NCBI RefSeq assembly: GCF_000019345.1
Contig: NC_010503.1
Span: forward strand, 630,001-662,000
DNA: 32,000 bases
Direction of reading: 5' to 3'
From: Ureaplasma parvum serovar 3 str. ATCC 27815
GTDB taxonomy: Bacteria > Bacillota_I > Bacilli_A > Mycoplasmatales > Mycoplasmoidaceae
Within the stretch, counting starts at the first letter, position 1; every line of letters starts with the position of its first letter. Below are positions 3,116 to 28,734 of the stretch, piece by piece. Both the position numbers and the translations under genes were made by a program. The notes beneath the pieces were generated by a model. It saw nothing but the letters and a program-made list of their open reading frames with translations. It did not search any database and was not told the DNA's origin.

Positions 3116-4240
3116 TTGAATAAAAAATTTTTGAATGTTAGGAAATAAATTTTCATCTTGTAAACTGCCTGTAATAAGAAGTGTAAAAATGAACATGATT
3201 GATATTACAAATGAATGTGAATCTATACGATCTAATAATCCACCATGGCCAGGAATTAAATTACTATAATCTTTGGTATGATAATTACGTTTAATCGCAC
3301 TAAATACTAAGTCCCCACTAGTGCTTATTAAACTCAAAAACAAAAAAGCAACTATTGTGCAAATTCATCATAATGCTTGTTTATGCAATGTAAGATTTTT
3401 TTCATTTGAACTAGAAAAATCTAAACCAAAAATATTATATAAAACATTTTGTGATTTTAACACTATGCCGTTTTTAGGTTTAATTGGCACATATGACAAA
3501 CCAAAAATTATTAACATAATAACAATTGTTGCAATTACTAAACCAAAAATTAATCCTTCAACTGTTTTGTTAGGACTTATTTTTGGTGCTAATTTTGTTT
3601 TACCAAATAAAACACCACCAACATATGCAAATGTATCACTTAAAAAAACAATCATCATTAGCAATAATGAAGTAATTCAACTTCTAATAAAAGTAAAATA
3701 AAGTAATCCTATAAAAAAACCACTTAAAAAACTAAAAATTAAAATTGTGTATAAACAATTTTTGAAATTAATTTTTTTTAGAAATGCTAAAAAGAAAAAT
3801 AAAATAACTAATGTAACAAAATACGAGCATCCTAAACATGCGCCAAATAGTTTGATGACGTAATGGTAATTTATAGTTAAAAGGTATTTAATATTTAAAA
3901 ACTCATATTGATATATAAAATAAGAAATCGTTGTAGTATAAATGCAAATATTAAAAACAATTGTTAAGATGATTAATGTTATCTTATTATTATCAAAAAT
4001 GACTTTATTCATTTCATACGAACCAATACATATTAATGGTAATAATCATATTAATAAAACAATTGCAATCCCTTGTTGAATATATAAATTATTAATTAAA
4101 GGTGTTCAATTATAATTACGATCTGCTAATAATGCTAAAACAAAATAAATTAATAAGTATAAAAAAATAAAAATCGATGAATAAAACCGTTTAAAAAAAG
4201 TGTTTTTTGTTTTTTCATTGATTTTATTGACACTAATCAT
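3104..4240 (-). CDS. cdsA: Phosphatidate cytidylyltransferase (CDP-diglyceride synthase), 378 aa
   Basis: Track pieces 3104-3343, 3368-3664 and 3677-4012 share one frame and extend by hand translation to ATG 4240 (MISVNKINEKTKNTFF...). C-terminal CdsA signature SAIKRNYHTKDYSNLIPGHGGLLDRIDS. Multi-TM throughout. Confidence 0.9.
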
Positions 4241-4250
4241 TTTTAATTAA

Positions 4251-4802
4251 TTAAACAGTCATTATGTCTTTTTCTTTATGACTTACAACTGTTTCGATTT
4301 CCTTATTTAATTCTTTTGTTAAATTATCTAATTCTGTTTGAAAAAACTTTTTATCGTCTTCAATAGTTGTTGAATCTTTTTTGAATAAATCTTGTGCTTC
4401 TTGACGGATATGACGTACACGAATTTTAGCTTCTTCGCCAACCTGTTTTGCTTTTTTAACTAAATTTTTTCTTACTTCTTCTGTTGGAGCAGCGAACGTT
4501 AAACGAATAATATCAACATCTACTTGAGGATTAACACCTAAATTTGATGCGTTAATTGCAGTAGCAATATCTTTAATACTACTTCTATCATAAGGTTTAA
4601 TTGCTAAAACACGTGGTTCTGGAACTGAAATATTTGCTAATTGATTAATTGGCATCATTGAACCATAATAATTAACTAAAATACCATCTAAAATAGCAGG
4701 CGTAGCTCTTCCTGTTCGCAATTTAATAAATTCATTGTGCATTCATTTTAACACTAATTCAAATTCTTCTCTGATTTTAGTTTCATAAATTTTAAAATTC
4801 AT
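4251..4802 (-). CDS. frr: Ribosome recycling factor, 183 aa
   Basis: ATG 4802 with AAGGAGAT upstream (rc of 4807-4814). MNFKIYETKIREEFELVLKW + MHNEFIKLRTGRATPAILDGILVNYYG..., typical of Frr. One TGA-Trp. Confidence 0.95.
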
Positions 4803-4819
4803 AAAATCTCCTTAAAAAA

Positions 4820-5527
4820 TTATTTTGAAACAATTGTGTATTTATTTTTTTTCTCTAAAACATCAACAATTGCATTTGGTTTATCAATATTAAAAACTAA
4901 TAAATTTATATTATTTTCTTGACACAAAGCTAAAGCTGTTGCATCCATAACTTTTAAATTTTGAGTAAGGGCCATATTAAATGTAATATGTTCATAAAAT
5001 TGTGCATTAGGATTAATTTTTGGATCACTATCATAGACACCATCAACACCATTTTTGCCCATTAAAATTATACTAGATTCTGTTTCAGCAGCTCTAATTG
5101 CTGCACACGAATCAGTTGTAAAATATGGAAATCCTGTTCCAGCCACAAAAATCATTACTTGTTCTTTTTCAATAGCTTTTTTTATATTATTAGCAGATGA
5201 TTCATGAACTAATTTATCACATTTAATTGCAGATAAAACAATAGTGTTAACATTCAAATGATTTAAAGCATTTTCTAAAGCTAACCCATTTATAATAGTT
5301 GCCATCATACCCATATTATCAGCTAAATTACGATCCATATCTAGCTCTTTGGCAATGCTACCTCGTCAAATATTGCCACCACCTAAAACAATTGATACAA
5401 TATATTTCTTAGAAATTTTTTCAATTTGTTCTGCTAAATCATTAATCTTTATAAAATCAATTATTGAACTATCATTTTGTTTTAAGCAAGCTCCAGAAAT
5501 TTTAATTACAATTCGTTGTTTTCGCAT
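4820..5527 (-). CDS. pyrH: UMP kinase, 235 aa
   Basis: ATG 5527. MRKQRIVIKISGACL...VLGGGNIWRG...MDRNLADNMGMMATIINGLAL...FVAGTGFPYFTTDSCAAIRAAE, the PyrH pattern. One TGA-Trp. Confidence 0.95.
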
Positions 5528-5564
5528 ATGAATTTCCTTTCATATTCCTTATTGACTACACTAT

Positions 5565-5599
5565 AAAAATAGAAAGAAACTTTGTTTCCTTCTATTTTT
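5565..5599 (-). terminator. Rho-independent terminator after tsf
   Basis: On the minus strand: ATAGAAGGAAAC-AAAG-GTTTCTTTCTAT (12 bp, one G.U pair) followed by a T-run. It sits between the tsf stop (5611) and the pyrH start (5527). Confidence 0.6.
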
Positions 5600-5610
5600 A
5601 CATTTAAAAA

Positions 5611-6486
5611 TTATTTTTTCATTTGTGCTGCTACTTCATCAGCAAAACTCATTTGAGGAGCTTTTTCAATTCCTTCGCCTACTTCATATGAGAAATAACC
5701 TACTGCAACAGCGTTATTATTCTTTAAATATTTTTCAATTGTTAATTCTGGTTGTTTAAAATATGATTGATCTACTAAACAATTTTCTTTTAAAATTTTA
5801 TTTAAACGCCCGTCAATAATTTTTGCAGCAAAAGCTGCTGGTTTACCTTCATGTTCTAATTGATTAACAATAATTTCACGTTCTTTCGCTAATCATAACT
5901 TATCAACAACTTTTTCATTTAAATAACGTGGACGCATTGCTGCAGCATGCATTGCTACATTTCGAACAACTTCATCTTCAACTTTTCCATCAACTAAAAT
6001 AATAGCAGCAACTCTGTTGTTATTGTGAGTATAAACACCTAAAGTTTGGTCATCATTAGCTTTTAAAATTTCTCCACGTCTAAAAACGATTTTTTCACCA
6101 ATATATGCTGTTAAATCTAATCCTGATTCAGCAATTGGTTTTCCATTTATAATTAATTTATCAAAATCTTCTTTATTTTCAACCTTAGCTAATGCTTCTT
6201 CTAAAATTTGATTAGCATAAGCTAAAAAATTTTCATTCTTAGCAACAAAGTCAGTTTGACAATTAACCTCAATAAGAATTGCTTTATTATTTATTTTTTT
6301 GGCCAATACAACACCATCTGTCGCTGCATTTTTTAGTTTATTAGCAGCCTTAATAGCACCATTTTCTCGTAATCATACTATTGCTTTTTCAATATCATTT
6401 TCTGACGCATCTAAAGCTTTAATACATTCACTCATACTAGCTTGTGTTCTTATTCTTAATTCTTTAACTAATTCAGCTTTTGTCAT
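5611..6486 (-). CDS. tsf: Elongation factor Ts, 291 aa
   Basis: ATG 6486. [43 protein letters not shown]...[10 protein letters not shown]..., ending ...AAQMKK then TAA 5611-5613. Two TGA-Trp. Confidence 0.95.
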
Positions 6487-23468: not shown

Positions 23469-26384
23469 CTATTCTACATCTCAATCTTCATTAAATAAAG
23501 CAATTGATAATACCAACGCAATAGCTTGAGTTCGTTTTTTAATTTGTTCTGGTTGAAGTTCTTCTTTATCACTTAATTTTAAACTCATAAGTGCTTCTTT
23601 AAATACATCTTCATTAACATCAATTTTATTAGATTTTAACTTTTCATTTATTTTTGTGAATTCATTGTAAAGTTTTGTTATTTGTTCCTCATTTAATCCT
23701 TTGTATAATCAAAGATTTTGAATGATAGGTGCATTTTTATAACGTTGTTTTTTATCTTTAAATTCTTTATTATTAAGAGCTGAGTTGTATTCTTTAGTAA
23801 GTGGTATTAAATTACCAATATTATTTTTAACAATATTAAATCTTTCATCTTTTAATGATTGTGAATACATGTGTTCAATTGTTAAATCTGCTTTTTCATT
23901 ATCAGCATTACTTGGTGGATAAAAAAATACTTTTGTATCCTTATTTTTATTTATTTGCGTATCATCAAGAAAAAAAGTTAAATAAGTTTCAAATCTAATT
24001 AAATAAGCCAAATGAATATCACTAACCTTTTCATCAAGCATTTTGTTATAAAAATTTTTAATATTTTTTATTTCCATTTGATTATTGCTATTAAAAACAT
24101 CTAAAAATTTTTTTGATAAATTAATATTTTTAATGGAATTTATATTGTTTTTGTTAATATCATTATCAATTAACTTAATTAATTTAATAACACTATTTAA
24201 AATACTTTGACCACGAGTATTTAATAAAACATTTCTCAATGAAAAATTAGCAATCACGCTAACATATTCTTCAATATTAATTCTTAATTTGCTTTTATCA
24301 AAATTACCATTGTTATCAAAATCATACAATACATCCTCAGTAAATATTTTCTCTAATAAATAAACTAATAAAGGAATATAATTCTTTTTCTTTTTGTTCG
24401 TTAAGATTAGTAAATAATCACTAATTAAATAAAAATTACAATTATTGTTTGTGAATTTATCTTTGATTGTTAAGTCATTGTAAATATCTATATATTTACT
24501 AAAATATTTCAAACACGCTTTTCAATTATTTTTTAAAGTAAATTTTTTATTAATAATTTCAATAATAAAAAATCAACTTTTATTATAATATTCATCATCT
24601 TTATCGTTTTTTTCAAATCTTTTTAAATCCTCATCTTTACAAAGATTTAAAGCACTTAATGAATCAACAAATTCGTTAAAACGTTTTACTTCAATAATAT
24701 TTTCATCTTTTTTTAATAAAAATTTTTTCGTTATTAAATCATTATATTTCTGTTGGAATTCTTCTTTATTTTTAAAAATTGATTCTTTAAAATTTTCATA
24801 TCAACAAAACTTATTTTTTAACAATTCAATAGCGTTAAGTTTTTTAGCATTAGTATTTAATGATTCAAAAGTTTTAAATTCATCAACATTTTTTAAAATA
24901 ACTAAATTGAGGATTAAATTATTAAATAAGGCGTTAGCAAAATTCGCTCATTCTTTAAATTCTTTTGGTTTTTCTTCAAATCATTCAACAATATCTTTTA
25001 GATTCATAAAAATATGATTGTTTTTATTATCTAATTCATCATTAGATAATATTTGTTTTAAAGCTTCATAGTCAGGATTGCCACCAATACGACTAAAGCG
25101 ATCAATTATAAACTCTCTGTTAAAAAAGATATCTTTTAAATGACTTAGTTGCTTTATTTGTTCGTTTGTAAATTTTGTTATTTCTTCTCTGTTGTTATAC
25201 AAGAAAATAATAAATGCTTTTGTAATTAAAAATAAGGTTGTTAATCGTTGTTGACCATCAATAATTTGAATATTATCAATAGATTCTTCTTTAACTAAGA
25301 CACTAATGATACTACCTAAAAAATGGTTTTCATTATTTTGTTTGTTACTAATATCATTAATATCTTCTAGCAATTTTTCAATATTATCAATTGTTCAAAC
25401 ATAATTACGTTGAAAAACTGGAATACTCATTTTAATTGTTTCATTCTTGTTTAAAAATTTAATCAATCATACTAAATTAAAAATATAAGCATCACCATTA
25501 TCTGAAGCCAACTTCTTTGTACCATCTAATTTAGTCACTTCAATAGAATTGTCATTTGAAATTAATGGTAATTTTCAATTAGTAACTAATTCACACGAAT
25601 CACTATATTCTTCAAAATTAAATTTTTTATTATCTTTTTCTTGTTGAGTTTTCGCTGTTCTTAAAAAATCTGGTTTATTTTTAGTTTTATTTATATTAGT
25701 TTGATTGTTTGGATTTGCTTTATTTTCATCATTAGTTTTTGCTCAATAGTTTTCAAATTTGGTAATTAATTCATTAGAAATTATTTGATCTTTAAAATAA
25801 TTTTCAACAAATTCTTTATATTGTTTAAAATGCTTAAAATTGCTATCATTTTGCTTAGGTTCATAGTAGTATTCAAATAATTCTTTTTTAGTTAAATAAT
25901 CATTGTGTTTTTTATAATGTAGTAATGATAAGAAAATAGTTAAAACAAAATCTTTATTTTTTTGATCTATTGTTTCATTTTGAAAAAAATCATTTAAATC
26001 TAAATTTCTTAAAAATTTATTAACAAAAACATTTGTGATGTGTTTATTGATGCTTTTTTCGGTGTTATCTGATACATTAAAAGTAAATATATAATCTTTA
26101 AGAGTGTCATTTTTGTATGTATTAATTGTTTTATTTTTATCACTATCTACAATAATTTGTAAATAATAAAGAACACGTATTAATTCATAAGATGAACGTT
26201 TAAAACTAAATTCAACTTTTTTTTGATTTTTATCATTAATTAAAATTTTTCATTCTTGATCATTAGTATCAAGGTGTAATTTCTCATTCGAAAAAATCTT
26301 TTTAACATTATTTTCATTGCAGATCAAATATTTAATAAATGTATTAATACTTGTACTTATTTTTCAAAACTTTAATTTAGCCAT
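23469..26384 (-). CDS. DUF262 + DUF1524 (GmrSD/SspE-type) nuclease-family protein with an unassigned ~320-aa N-terminal region, 971 aa
   Basis: Hand-translated end to end from ATG 26384 to TAG 23469-23471; the only interruptions are TGA codons. DUF262 motifs IPVFQRNYVW and IIDGQQRLTTLFLI. DUF1524/His-Me finger LTIEHMYSQS...NIGNLIPLTKEYNSALNNKEFKDKK. The start lies 3 nt after the methyltransferase stop. Confidence 0.85.
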
Positions 26385-26387
26385 AAA

Positions 26388-27635
26388 TTATTTATTAAAT
26401 CTTTCTTGAATTAATTTCATTAAATAAACCATTACATCAACAACAATTGAATTTCCAGCTTGTTGATACATTTTAGCTTTTGATATTCCCTTAGCTTGAA
26501 TCGCTTCAAAATCTTTTTCATTAAAGCCCATTAATAGATAGGCTTCACGATTTGTTAATAAACGAAAGTTTGCTTTTTTAGGTAAATTATTGTGATCTTT
26601 TTCACGATAATCATCACCTAAAATCGTATTTTTTAAATTGATATAACCACCATTAGGAAAACGATCTTGACGTGTTGTAATTGTTGAAGTACAATAACAA
26701 TTAGGATTTAATAAATCATATTTTGGAATGACATATTTTATTCTTGAAAATGTGCGATTTGGTTGAGCTAAATATGCTTCTTGATAATATTTTTCAATTT
26801 TATAATTAGTTTTTAAAACATCCTTTAATTGTTTTTGTTTTCCATCAAAAATAGGTGCTTCTAAATCTAAAATATTTCCATTACTATCAATTAATCCATC
26901 ATAGTTTAGAATCGAAATTGCATATACTCGTTTACGACGTTGTGCTGACCCATAATCAAGAGCGTTTAATTGAAAAGTACATGTACTATAACCTAATTGT
27001 TTTAAAGATTTGGTTCACATATCATAATCTAGCTTATGTTGTTTAGATAACATGTTATTAACGTTTTCTAATAAAAGAAATTGTGGTAATTGATTTAATT
27101 TTTGCAAATCGAATAAAATGCGTTCAATTTCTCATAGTAATCCAGAACGTGTACCGGATCCTTTTTTCATTCCAAAAGCTTTTTTACTAAAGCTTCCAGC
27201 TGTTGATAAGTCTTGACAAGGGAATGAATAAGTAAGTAAATCTATCCCTTTGTTCCCAACACTTTTTATTAACTGCTCACCAGTCACACTTAAAATACTT
27301 CCTAAATTATTAGAATTAAGATATGCATCATATAATTCACGTTTAATATTTTCGCTAAAAGAACTAATTTTTTTACGAATTGGGTCTTTACCATTTGATG
27401 AGTGATTAAATTTTTCTAAATAATTATCAATTCTATTAATATCAATATTTAAATTAATTTTTTTATGTGGATAATGAATTGTGTTATAAGAAATATTTGC
27501 ATAAATATCTCATTCGCTTGTAGCAACAATTTTGTAGTCAAAGCCAAATTGTTTTTTTACAATTTCTAAAGCACGATGTTGTGCTCCAATTCCAGAAAAA
27601 GTTTCAAATACTCTTAAAACCTTAGTTTTATCTAT
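26388..27635 (-). CDS. DNA (cytosine-5)-methyltransferase, ~415 aa, intact body but without a canonical start codon in the present DNA orientation
   Basis: Hand-translated with no TAA/TAG and 3 TGA-Trp. Motif I FETFSGIGAQ, IV SFPCQDLS, GSGTRSGLLWEIER, VI LLENV, VIII QRRKRVY, IX RLLTNREAYLLMGF, X GNSIVV. Upstream in frame: TAA (27641-27639), AAC, ATA, then GAT AAA ACT AAG GTT. The nearest ATG (27645) is out of frame and stops after 5 codons. Confidence 0.85.
27616..27633. repeat. Left arm of the 18-bp perfect inverted repeat (aaaaccttagttttatct), inside codons 2-8 of the methyltransferase ORF
   Basis: Exact reverse complement of 27757-27774, checked base by base. The match stops at both flanks. 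Confidence 0.95.
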
Positions 27636-27739
27636 GTTTTAACATTGAAATTATTTAAAAATGCTAAAATTAAATAATAATTGATGTTTTTGTATTAATT
27701 TCGTACGAATAAATTATTTAGAACAAAATGTGGACATTT

Positions 27740-27790
27740 ATGAGCAAAAATAAAGCAGATAAAACTAAGGTTTTCTCTATTTTTTTGTAA
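27740..27790 (+). other. Displaced 5' cassette of the methyltransferase gene (ATG + MSKNKADKTKV), currently fused to a 5-codon nonsense tail (FSIFL*)
   Basis: atg agc aaa aat aaa gca gat aaa act aag gtt ttc tct att ttt ttg taa. Codons 7-11 (DKTKV) are the IR itself, read in the same frame as in the methyltransferase body. Confidence 0.7.
27757..27774. repeat. Right arm of the 18-bp perfect inverted repeat (agataaaactaaggtttt)
   Basis: Exact reverse complement of 27616-27633. It lies inside a 16-codon plus-strand ORF beginning ATG AGC AAA AAT AAA GCA. Confidence 0.95.
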
Positions 27791-27849
27791 TTTAAATTAA
27801 TATAATTTTAAAAATCCTATTGTTTTTTATATATTTATAATTTTTACAT

Positions 27850-28605
27850 ATGAAAAAATTTATAAATTATTTAAAAAATGTAAAAGGATATAGTGATGGT
27901 ACAATTGCTATTTATCAAAAATATGTTAAAGTACTAATTGATAATAATTTAGATTATTTAAAAGCTATTAAAAAATATGAACATAACGCTAATGTTACTA
28001 AGCGCGTTGTTTTAAGTGCTTTTAAAGCATATTTAAAATTTATTAATCATAAAGATGCTATATTGATTGTTATGCCTAAAAAAGAAATTAAAGTAAAAGA
28101 ATTTTTGACTTGAGATAATTTTTTAAAAATTATTAATAATATTAATCAAGCTACCTTTTTAGGTTTTCAGAAATATTTAATTTTAAGAATTTTATTTGAA
28201 ACAGGCATTCGATCTTGTGAATTATTAAAACTAGAAATTAAAGATATTTATGAAAATAAGTTAAAAATTCATGGCAAAGGCAAAAAAGAACGCTTTGTTT
28301 ATTTATCAAACGATTTACAAAATAATATTAAAAAATATATTGGTCAAATTAAAACAAAATATTTATTTAATTTTAGTTATAAAAATTTGTATCAAAAAGT
28401 TACTAGAATTAAAACTAATATTAGGCTAACGCCTCATATTTTACGTCGTAGTTTTGCTAACCATTGCATTAATAATGGTATTAATATTTATGATTTATCA
28501 TTAGTTATGGGTCATAACAATATTAATTCAACAAGTTTATATTTAAATAAGGAAAGTAAATTAGTAGAATTAGATCATCTTTTTGATAATAAAAAAGTTA
28601 ATTAA
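27850..28605 (+). CDS. Tyrosine site-specific recombinase (XerC/D / phage-integrase family), 251 aa
   Basis: Pieces 27850-28113 and 28387-28605 are in frame (one TGA-Trp). Catalytic residues in order: ETGIRSCEL (Arg), HGKGKKER (Lys), TPHILRRSFA (HxxR), MGHNNINSTSLYL (His...Tyr). Confidence 0.85.
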
Positions 28606-28734
28606 TTTTATAAATATATAAAATAAAAAATCTACTTCAGTTTTGCACTAAAGTAGATAATATAATTCAATTCTAAATACCAACAAAAAACTAAATTAAA
28701 AATAAACTTTTTTTAGTTTTTGTTAATTAATGTC

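Follow-up and report, generated by a model that had tools for sequence, protein, structure and literature searches.

Phasevarions, as described by Jennings, Seib, Atack and colleagues, are systems in which a methyltransferase toggles stochastically, either through slippage in simple repeats or through recombination at hsdS genes. Inversion control of restriction-modification (R-M) has been known in Mycoplasma pulmonis since 1994, and it is widespread for Type I hsdS (PMC7672463, PMC4948785). Milman et al. (2023, PMC9881135) have more recently reported programmed inversions, with repeats of at least 22 base pairs (bp), in methylases of Type II R-M, BREX and DISARM systems. For gut bacteria, a 2025 preprint (PMC11741434) lists “inverton-like” events close to R-M genes of Types I, II and III. 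Here we describe a locus of Ureaplasma parvum, a bacterium of the human urogenital tract (serovar 3 strain ATCC 27815), where a short inverted repeat lies at the 5' end of a C5 cytosine DNA methyltransferase gene, next to the gene of the tyrosine recombinase UU529 (“CodV”). The locus sits in a window of 32,000 nucleotides (nt), positions 630,001 to 662,000 of NC_010503.1, and all coordinates below are those of the window. We consider it highly probable that this arrangement is a recombinase-driven ON/OFF inversion switch for the C5 methylase operon of U. parvum.

A comparison of 19 ureaplasma genomes called most of their R-M systems incomplete remnants. Searches of the open-access literature found neither an inversion switch reported for a C5 methylase nor an account of this U. 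parvum locus or of a function of UU529 there, although an account in a subscription journal is possible. These searches agree with an earlier reading of the locus made from its letters (the sequence-only reading), which knew of no described switch of a C5 methylase 5' end.

Repeat arms and their two natural orientations

The genes of the window are open under genetic code 4, the table with which open reading frames (ORFs) were called, and table 11 breaks every one of them at TGA codons; the G+C content is 25.6%. The DNA is therefore that of a mollicute, and protein matches place it in U. parvum. The features on which the argument turns are the following.

26388-27635, minus strand: body of a C5 cytosine DNA methyltransferase (PF00145), with motifs FSGIG, PCQ, ENV, QRRKR and GNS intact
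27616-27633: left arm of an 18-bp perfect inverted repeat, a proposed recombination site, AAAACCTTAGTTTTATCT on the plus strand
27634-27756: invertible core of 123 bp, which contains the ATG with the first 5 2/3 methylase codons, preceded by a promoter-like element
27741-27791, plus strand: mini-ORF encoding MSKNKADKTKVFSIFL and then a stop; inversion makes its ATG and first 11 codons the N-terminal end of the methylase
27757-27774: right arm, on the recombinase side, AGATAAAACTAAGGTTTT, the exact reverse complement of 27616-27633
27850-28605, plus strand: tyrosine recombinase UU529 (“CodV”), the proposed invertase, 251 amino acids (aa), PF00589 (76 bits)

The sequence-only reading had proposed that 27616-27774 is an invertible segment bounded by an 18-bp perfect inverted repeat, and both arms proved to be exact reverse complements of each other. 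They are the longest perfect inverted repeat of the 32 kb at spacings of up to 1 kb, the runners-up being AT-only 15- to 16-mers, and with up to three mismatches allowed there is no further copy of the arm in the window. A perfect repeat of at least 18 bp with arms no more than 300 bp apart arose in 1% of 300 first-order Markov simulations of the window.

The position of the arms with respect to the coding frames is what gives them meaning. On the minus strand, the left arm covers the methylase codons (AT)A-GAT-AAA-ACT-AAG-GTT-TT. The ORF to which they belong (26388-27638) is open for 416 codons and begins TAA AAC ATA GAT AAA ACT AAG GTT TTA..., that is, a stop followed by NIDKTKVLRVFETFSGIG; no ATG, GTG or TTG precedes motif I in this frame. 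The claim of an intact methylase ORF behind TAA-AAC-ATA and without any of these three codons thus stands, whereas the stronger statement that it has no start depends on how a start is defined, since NCBI annotation of some strains begins at the ATA and gives a 415-aa protein, MDKTKV... (P0001, P0123). On the plus strand, the right arm lies in the mini-ORF ATG AGC AAA AAT AAA GCA GAT AAA ACT AAG GTT TTC TCT ATT TTT TTG TAA, which shares the D-K-T-K-V codons with the methylase frame in the same phase and stops five codons later, just as the sequence-only reading had described it. When 27616-27774 is flipped in silico the two halves meet, and the result is an intact 420-aa C5-methyltransferase that starts MSKNKADKTKVLRVFETFSGIG and runs as predicted into motif I; this protein is identical to WP_340045337.1. 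In the window the core points at the recombinase gene, which is OFF for the methylase. No alternative partner ORF for the mobile 5' end was found: the OFF orientation gives a 16-aa ORF, and the window holds no third copy of the repeat. Having no partner ORF or pseudogene of the kind that marks a gene-altering shufflon, the arrangement would be a pure ON/OFF switch.

Natural isolates carry both orientations. The cluster of methylase sequences at 90% identity has 11 members, one of which (P0122, the 420-aa WP_340045337.1) matches the predicted ON protein letter for letter, and at least 19 contigs among NCBI, ENA and Logan assemblies encode the ON protein in exactly the flipped DNA. The remaining members of the cluster are OFF-state annotations of 415, 315, 299 and 260 aa, the 299-aa form being that of AAF30941.1 and ACA32926.1. 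Most other assemblies, both serovar-3 reference strains included, have the OFF arrangement with a truncated protein annotated. The C5 motifs of the methylase (I, IV, VI, VIII and X) are all present, and both ON and OFF alleles are seen.

At the level of DNA, four ON loci (L001-L004) carry the 123-bp core as the exact reverse complement of that found in the window and in six OFF loci (L005-L008, L010 and L011), and a seventh OFF locus (L009) has a single substitution in the core. Flanks and arms are collinear between ON L001-L004 and OFF L005-L011 or the window, with 0-5 differences per 3-4.5 kb, and the flipped window is identical to the natural locus L001 over 150 bp. Because natural ON and OFF loci differ only by reversal between the arms, the breakpoints must lie inside the 18-bp repeat. 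These loci support the proposal that 27616-27774 is invertible, carries the methylase start and is OFF in the window. The repeat is also conserved across strains, with both arms perfect in every locus.

Does the segment flip repeatedly, or do its two orientations merely segregate among lineages? In an 8.7-kb alignment of the flanks there are 16 variable columns, and at all 16 of them L001 (ON) and L009 (OFF) agree. Each of two sub-haplotypes carries both ON and OFF, and all four combinations of single-nucleotide polymorphism (SNP) and orientation occur, a four-gamete pattern that suggests repeated flipping. Some points weigh against this. The four-gamete pattern rests on a single flanking SNP and could also arise by homologous recombination between strains. 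The two orientations are documented between isolates or samples. There are also signs of decay in some strains, where the module may be decaying and not actively used: a motif-I Gly to Arg change in P0001 (FSRIG for FSGIG, on a 734,075-nt U. parvum contig), suggested methylase frameshifts in the Logan fragments P0128 and P0130, and a GmrSD-like gene split into two ORFs in L002 and L009 (764+202 aa and 569+412 aa).

It can be argued that the inversion is real but rare, going back to one or a few old events, and effectively a fixed polymorphism in which the OFF allele is a dead gene. The decay just described and the fact that all evidence for two orientations comes from comparing isolates or samples would fit such a view, as would the finding that the fetched ON loci all fall within one of two major flank haplotype groups. 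However, the arms are perfect in every locus and the methylase body is intact in OFF strains; flanks that are identical over 8.7 kb are found with either orientation, and so is each of the two sub-haplotypes; and the recombinase is intact, with all catalytic residues, and always adjacent in U. parvum. The architecture has moreover persisted, ON in some lineages and OFF in others, although their recombinases share only 43-49% identity. We therefore find a fixed polymorphism improbable, and favor a switch: what annotation presents as a truncated remnant would probably be a functional gene caught in the OFF phase. Our confidence in this model and in each of the three alternatives weighed in this text overlaps, and is not meant to sum to one.

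Predicted ON and OFF states of the operon

In the proposed mechanism UU529, the most likely catalyst, would recombine the two 18-bp inverted sites and so flip the 123 bp between them. In the ON state the D-K-T-K-V codons would link the core in frame with the methylase body, giving the 420-aa enzyme, and a GmrSD-family nuclease gene 3 nt downstream would probably be expressed along with it. In the OFF state, which is that of the window, promoter and ATG would face the recombinase gene and produce a 16-aa peptide only, leaving the methylase with neither promoter nor canonical start. We infer the identity of the catalyst, the frequency of switching in clones, the activity of the promoter, the co-regulation of the nuclease and the effect on methylome and expression. 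Further features bear on these states.

27665-27670, plus strand: second putative -10-like hexamer, TAAAAT, within the core
27690-27698, plus strand: putative extended -10-like element, TGTATTAAT, which aligns with TGTATAAT of relatives
27807-27835, plus strand: promoter-like site TTTAAA-17-TATATT, outside the invertible segment and upstream of the recombinase ATG, a consensus match only
28630-28658, minus strand: intrinsic terminator of a phosphoglucomutase-like gene, a 12-bp stem and T-run just past the 3' end of the recombinase gene
23469-26384, minus strand: GmrSD-family (DUF262/DUF1524) nuclease-like gene, 971 aa, starting 3 nt after the methylase stop

In DNA this rich in AT, promoter-like sites show no enrichment over shuffled sequence, and only their strand asymmetry and their conservation across species were used. 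A promoter scan of the core returned one site on the plus strand (27654-27681) and zero on the minus strand; the sole TANAAT hexamer and the sole promoter-like match of the core both lie on the strand that reads toward the ATG. When leaders are aligned in the ON configuration, TGTATAAT stands shortly upstream of the ATG in the invertible core of every relative; the putative -10 of U. parvum has a 1-nt insertion with respect to it, which counts against the switch as drawn. The site at 27807-27835 may serve as a promoter of UU529 itself. With the core promoter facing that gene in the OFF state, orientation-dependent read-through into it is also possible. The terminator has a folding energy of -15.8 kcal/mol (z = -5.5; none expected in shuffles) and should keep upstream minus-strand transcription away from the methylase when the switch is OFF.

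How tight would the OFF state be? In one alternative the orientation in the window is not truly OFF: the methylase is made from the ATA by way of some other promoter, and inversion alters its level or its first residues. ATA is an allowed, if rare, initiator in table 4, so that OFF may be leaky, and PGAP calls the 415-aa protein from it in P0001 and P0123; AT-rich DNA furthermore holds many weak promoter-like hexamers. On the other hand, no -10-like TANAAT occurs on the minus strand of the core, facing the methylase, and the terminator should keep out transcription that starts upstream. The products called by other annotators are all truncated, at 260-315 aa. A distant locus, L017, has the same OFF junction, and the OFF forms of Mycoplasma marinum and Malacoplasma muris likewise lack a start. 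A methylase made in both orientations is in our view unlikely, and we retain the reading in which the window orientation silences it.

The unit under control appears to be larger than the methylase. The 3-nt gap leaves no intergenic room for a separate promoter, the methylase and nuclease genes are best described as an R-M-like operon, and the GmrSD-family gene is probably co-transcribed and co-switched with the methylase. Its product has a 300-aa N-terminal extension followed by GmrSD_N (310-526) and GmrSD_C (773-911) domains, and it matches the PADLOC defense-nuclease models HEC-06/Orf5/SspE-like. The GmrSD/DUF262-DUF1524 family is typical of Type IV or SspE-like enzymes. With such a nuclease in the operon, “phase-variable defense/R-M module” would fit the locus at least as well as “phasevarion”. 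In the relatives of the switch, the position after the methylase is taken by GmrSD, HNH_2 or unknown ~350-aa genes.

The closest solved structure to the methylase is the CpG methylase M.MpeI of Mycoplasma penetrans (E = 4e-42, full length), a relationship that makes CpG a first guess for its specificity. M.MpeI itself (PDB 4dkj/8c56; P0144) begins MNSNKDKIKVIKVFEAFAGIG, which resembles the switch-encoded leader. The closest homologues of the methylase outside U. parvum (L012, L013 and L015) have no adjacent recombinase, and they have plain short leaders (e.g. MKKLRVFETF) without DKTKV. Since homologues that lack the recombinase also lack the DKTKV leader, leader and site belong to the switch cassette and not to the methylase family.

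The candidate recombinase and related putative switches in other mollicutes

The sequence-only reading had placed a tyrosine recombinase gene 76 nt from the repeat. The recombinase is there, and the gap beyond the right arm is 75 nt. That it is UU529 follows from the published UU529 primers (PMC3599477), which match the gene at either end. All catalytic residues (R, K, HxxR, H and Y) align with those of XerA (4a8e), and the protein falls far under the XerC and XerD equivalog cut-offs of NCBIfam (103 bits against 335 for XerC, 93 against 330 for XerD); by the equivalog scores and its absence from the core genes, it does not look like a true Xer/dif dimer-resolution recombinase. Among 5.8 billion proteins it has 13 relatives with E < 1e-10, all from mollicute-type sequences.

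An AT-only 16-bp perfect inverted repeat (27825-27840 / 28608-28623; extended to 27820-27840 / 28608-28628, 21 nt at 90%) frames the recombinase gene almost exactly. A functional role for it was considered and rejected: it is not kept around the homologues in L016, L017, L020 and L021, and is probably due to chance.

Zimmerman et al. (PMC3599477) detected UU529 in three of six serovar-3 strains, found it annotated in U. parvum only, and showed that it is dispensable for inversion at mba/UU172, which is performed by XerC (UU222); they do not mention the neighboring methylase. The only activity reported for purified CodV/UU529 is a gel shift of a different sequence, the putative dif site “difUP” (PMC3599477), and this speaks against a role at the switch. 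No meaningful similarity was found between difUP and the switch, where the best ungapped match (19/28) is no better than elsewhere in the window.

Could the core recombinase XerC be the real catalyst, with UU529 serving dimer resolution at difUP or the mobility of an island instead? XerC is the sole U. parvum recombinase with demonstrated inversion activity, and the binding of difUP by CodV in vitro (PMC3599477) would suit that division of labor. Proximity, too, is imperfect in the relatives described below: the recombinase homologue is 3.4 kb from the switch in L024, and no UU529 homologue lies within 4 kb of it in L028, nor perhaps beside it in L026. However, XerC sites (consensus TTATCAAACAG) bear no resemblance to AGATAAAACTAAGGTTTT, and UU529 homologues are found repeatedly beside repeats of this family or beside comparable perfect repeats. 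In U. parvum, the strain-variable UU529 accompanies the methylase in 10 of the 10 fetched loci that reach that far (the contig of L004 ends inside the recombinase gene). We give XerC as catalyst a low probability and take UU529 as the more likely invertase.

Homologues of UU529 show how far the design extends. Adjacent switches are present in four of the seven UU529-homologue contexts examined, and at least five other mollicute lineages have an equivalent switch beside a homologous recombinase or at the 5' end of a homologous methylase, in ON and in OFF states. The core of the site, AAAACTAA(G/A)GTT, which encodes (D)KTKV, is conserved in L016, L017, L024, L026 and L028.

Two of these contexts involve C5 methylases. 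In L016 (Candidatus Mycoplasma mahonii, recombinase 49% identical), the recombinase gene is divergent from genes for a C5 methylase and an HNH nuclease; the methylase starts MSTKKTDKTKV..., which is the ON state, and a partial second arm lies 82 bp away. In L017 (46% identical) a methylase gene and a split GmrSD gene lie divergent from the recombinase gene, and the perfect repeat measures 16 bp, ACAAAACTAAAGTTAT. This locus is OFF: the methylase frame reads, after a stop, NIHKTKV..., with the TAA AAC ATA junction seen in the window, and a flip restores the 420-aa MNSKKIDKTKVIRVYETFAGIG. The L017 recombinase (5001-5813, 270 aa) is annotated with a 20-residue N-terminal extension that is the mini-ORF MNSKKIDKTKV read in frame in the OFF state, which hints that the switch, when OFF, may contribute to recombinase expression.

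In two further contexts the repeats lie next to other genes. L020 (recombinase 44% identical) has perfect 18-bp repeats (3868-3885 / 3967-3984) around an 81-bp core with TATAAT, upstream of an ABC-ATPase operon. L021 (41%) has perfect 23-bp repeats (3871-3893 / 3957-3979) around a 63-bp core, also with TATAAT, upstream of a 1084-aa protein with a signal-peptide-like N-terminus, and a second copy of the recombinase lies on the far side of that gene; its site and leader (ATG AAA AAT AAA ATA GAT AAA AAT...) are visibly related to those of the methylase switches. No obvious switch was seen beside the recombinase homologue in L022 (with its shorter twin L023) or in L018/L019.

One genome from each of 185,579 species was scanned for paired sites, AACCTTAGTTTT...(76-134 nt)...AACTAAGGTT. 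In four mollicutes, three of them ON and one OFF, the pair coincides exactly with a C5-methylase 5' end.

L025, Candidatus Mycoplasma mahonii: ON, MSTKKTDKTKV...
L024, Mycoplasmatales metagenome-assembled genome (MAG) DT_67: ON, MSAKKVDKTKVIRV...
L028, Mycoplasma sp. MAG-1: ON, MNETKVIRVFEAFAGIG
L026, Mycoplasma marinum: OFF, ATG GAG AAA ACT AAG GTT faces away

Two other hits, L027 (a Spirochaetota MAG) and L029 (a Coxiellaceae MAG), were set aside as chance matches: their G+C content is 38-40%, and neither a methylase nor a recombinase accompanies the pair. The one-genome-per-species collection gave no match to the U. parvum switch pattern or to the phosphoglucomutase-like protein of U. parvum, though both would be expected in most U. 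parvum genomes.

The switch of L026 (NZ_PSZO01000057.1) lies at 31-137 of a 2035-bp contig, 30 bp from the contig end; an assembly break at the element can mean that the sequenced culture held both orientations. Genes of ~630-645 aa resembling the SLFN-g3 helicase recur beside switches (L028, 1919-3856, minus strand; L017, 5803-7689). In L028 the helicase-like gene abuts the outer arm, and inversion there might alternate between two divergent genes.

An independent example comes from the M.MpeI-like methylases. Malacoplasma muris (L030, CP177248.1) has such a C5 methylase, 56% identical to M.MpeI and annotated as truncated at 361 aa, with a 29-nt inverted repeat (4778-4806 / 4915-4943) that is unrelated to the U. 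parvum site. When a 140-bp element (4791-4930) is flipped, the protein grows to 394 aa, MIINKKSRENNNFIPRSVRLFESFAGIG, and its start codon is preceded by a TATAAT and a ribosome-binding site. The neighbors are an HNH_2 gene on the downstream side and, upstream, two inverted hsdS genes; no recombinase was found within 5 kb of this switch. Start-codon swapping by inversion may therefore be a recurrent means of C5-methylase control in mollicutes. In many M.MpeI/M.SssI-like methylases of mollicute-type contigs the annotated start falls directly behind motif I, which leaves 346-370 aa (P0151, P0154, P0157, P0204, P0227, P0229, P0235, P0239, P0241, P0243, P0247 and P0248). Annotations without motif I are the pattern expected of OFF-state 5'-swap switches, or of 5' truncations.

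We offer more tentatively, and with clearly less confidence than we have in the U. parvum switch itself, the broader idea that UU529-type recombinases and promoter/start-codon cassettes of ~100-160 bp form a portable switch family for Type II-like C5-methylase/nuclease operons across Mollicutes, which would give U. parvum two heritable epigenomes in one strain. If this were true, 5-methylcytosine (5mC), possibly at CpG, would be present or absent according to phase, with a phasevarion-like change of expression and a toggling barrier to foreign DNA, and the OFF state would drive extra recombinase expression that biases the switch toward ON. If inversion of the 5' end is general, as the M. muris case might indicate, many “truncated” methylase annotations would be OFF phases.

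Comparison with known systems

If the model holds, its first consequence is one of annotation: the “truncated R-M remnant” of 260-315 aa would have to be reread as a complete C5 methylase operon that can be switched. UU529/“CodV”, whose role has been open since 2000-2013, would gain a function that can be tested, and the invertible loci of U. parvum would number three, this one being the first to encode something other than a surface antigen. A phase-variable methylase and nuclease could explain differences between strains or cultures in the transformability of ureaplasmas and in their 5mC patterns, as read by nanopore or bisulfite sequencing. Should methylation affect transcription, the switch would be a bet-hedging regulator in an organism with almost no transcription factors.

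The nearest parallels are the mba/UU172 switches of U. parvum itself (PMC3047005, PMC3599477), in which short inverted repeats at the 5' coding end move a promoter and an N-terminal part by means of a tyrosine recombinase. Unlike in those systems, the target here is a cytoplasmic methyltransferase/nuclease operon and not surface lipoproteins, there is no alternative partner gene, the site is unrelated to IRmba and IRUU172, and the candidate recombinase is the accessory UU529 and not XerC. The element also resembles the mpl promoters of M. penetrans, as far as the account in PMC2268961 conveys them (Horino et al. 2003, 2009), and to the fimS/FimB/FimE system of Escherichia coli: an element of ~100-300 bp between short inverted repeats, with the promoter inside, ON/OFF control over a single neighboring gene or operon, and a dedicated tyrosine recombinase nearby. 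Set against what that account gives of mpl, and against fimS, the U. parvum element also holds the start and first codons of the gene, its recombination site lies inside coding sequence, and its product modifies DNA. Because the site is inside coding sequence, its own sequence fixes the N-terminal peptide (D)KTKV.

In that tyrosine-recombinase inversion alters R-M or methylation, the locus resembles the hsd system of M. pulmonis and the Type I hsdS invertons (Dybvig & Yu 1994; Sitaraman 2002; PMC7672463; PMC4948785). The hsdS systems shuffle the target-recognition domains of Type I N6-adenine enzymes and thereby their specificity, whereas the U. parvum switch would toggle a monomeric Type II-like C5 methylase. 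The systems of Milman et al. (PMC9881135) swap C-terminal or specificity segments with silent pseudogenes in large N6-adenine Type IIG/IIL enzymes, and neither these nor those of the 2025 preprint (PMC11741434) include a C5 start-codon swap, a mollicute or a recombinase of the UU529 family. The U. parvum switch would thus extend inversion control of methylation from Type I hsdS and large N6-adenine enzymes to a simple C5 methylase, by way of a start-codon swap. Its likeness to phasevarions lies in a toggling methyltransferase that could give each strain two epigenomes; it would differ from the classical ones in switching by inversion of a gene's 5' end, in place of repeat slippage or hsdS recombination, and in the nuclease encoded alongside.

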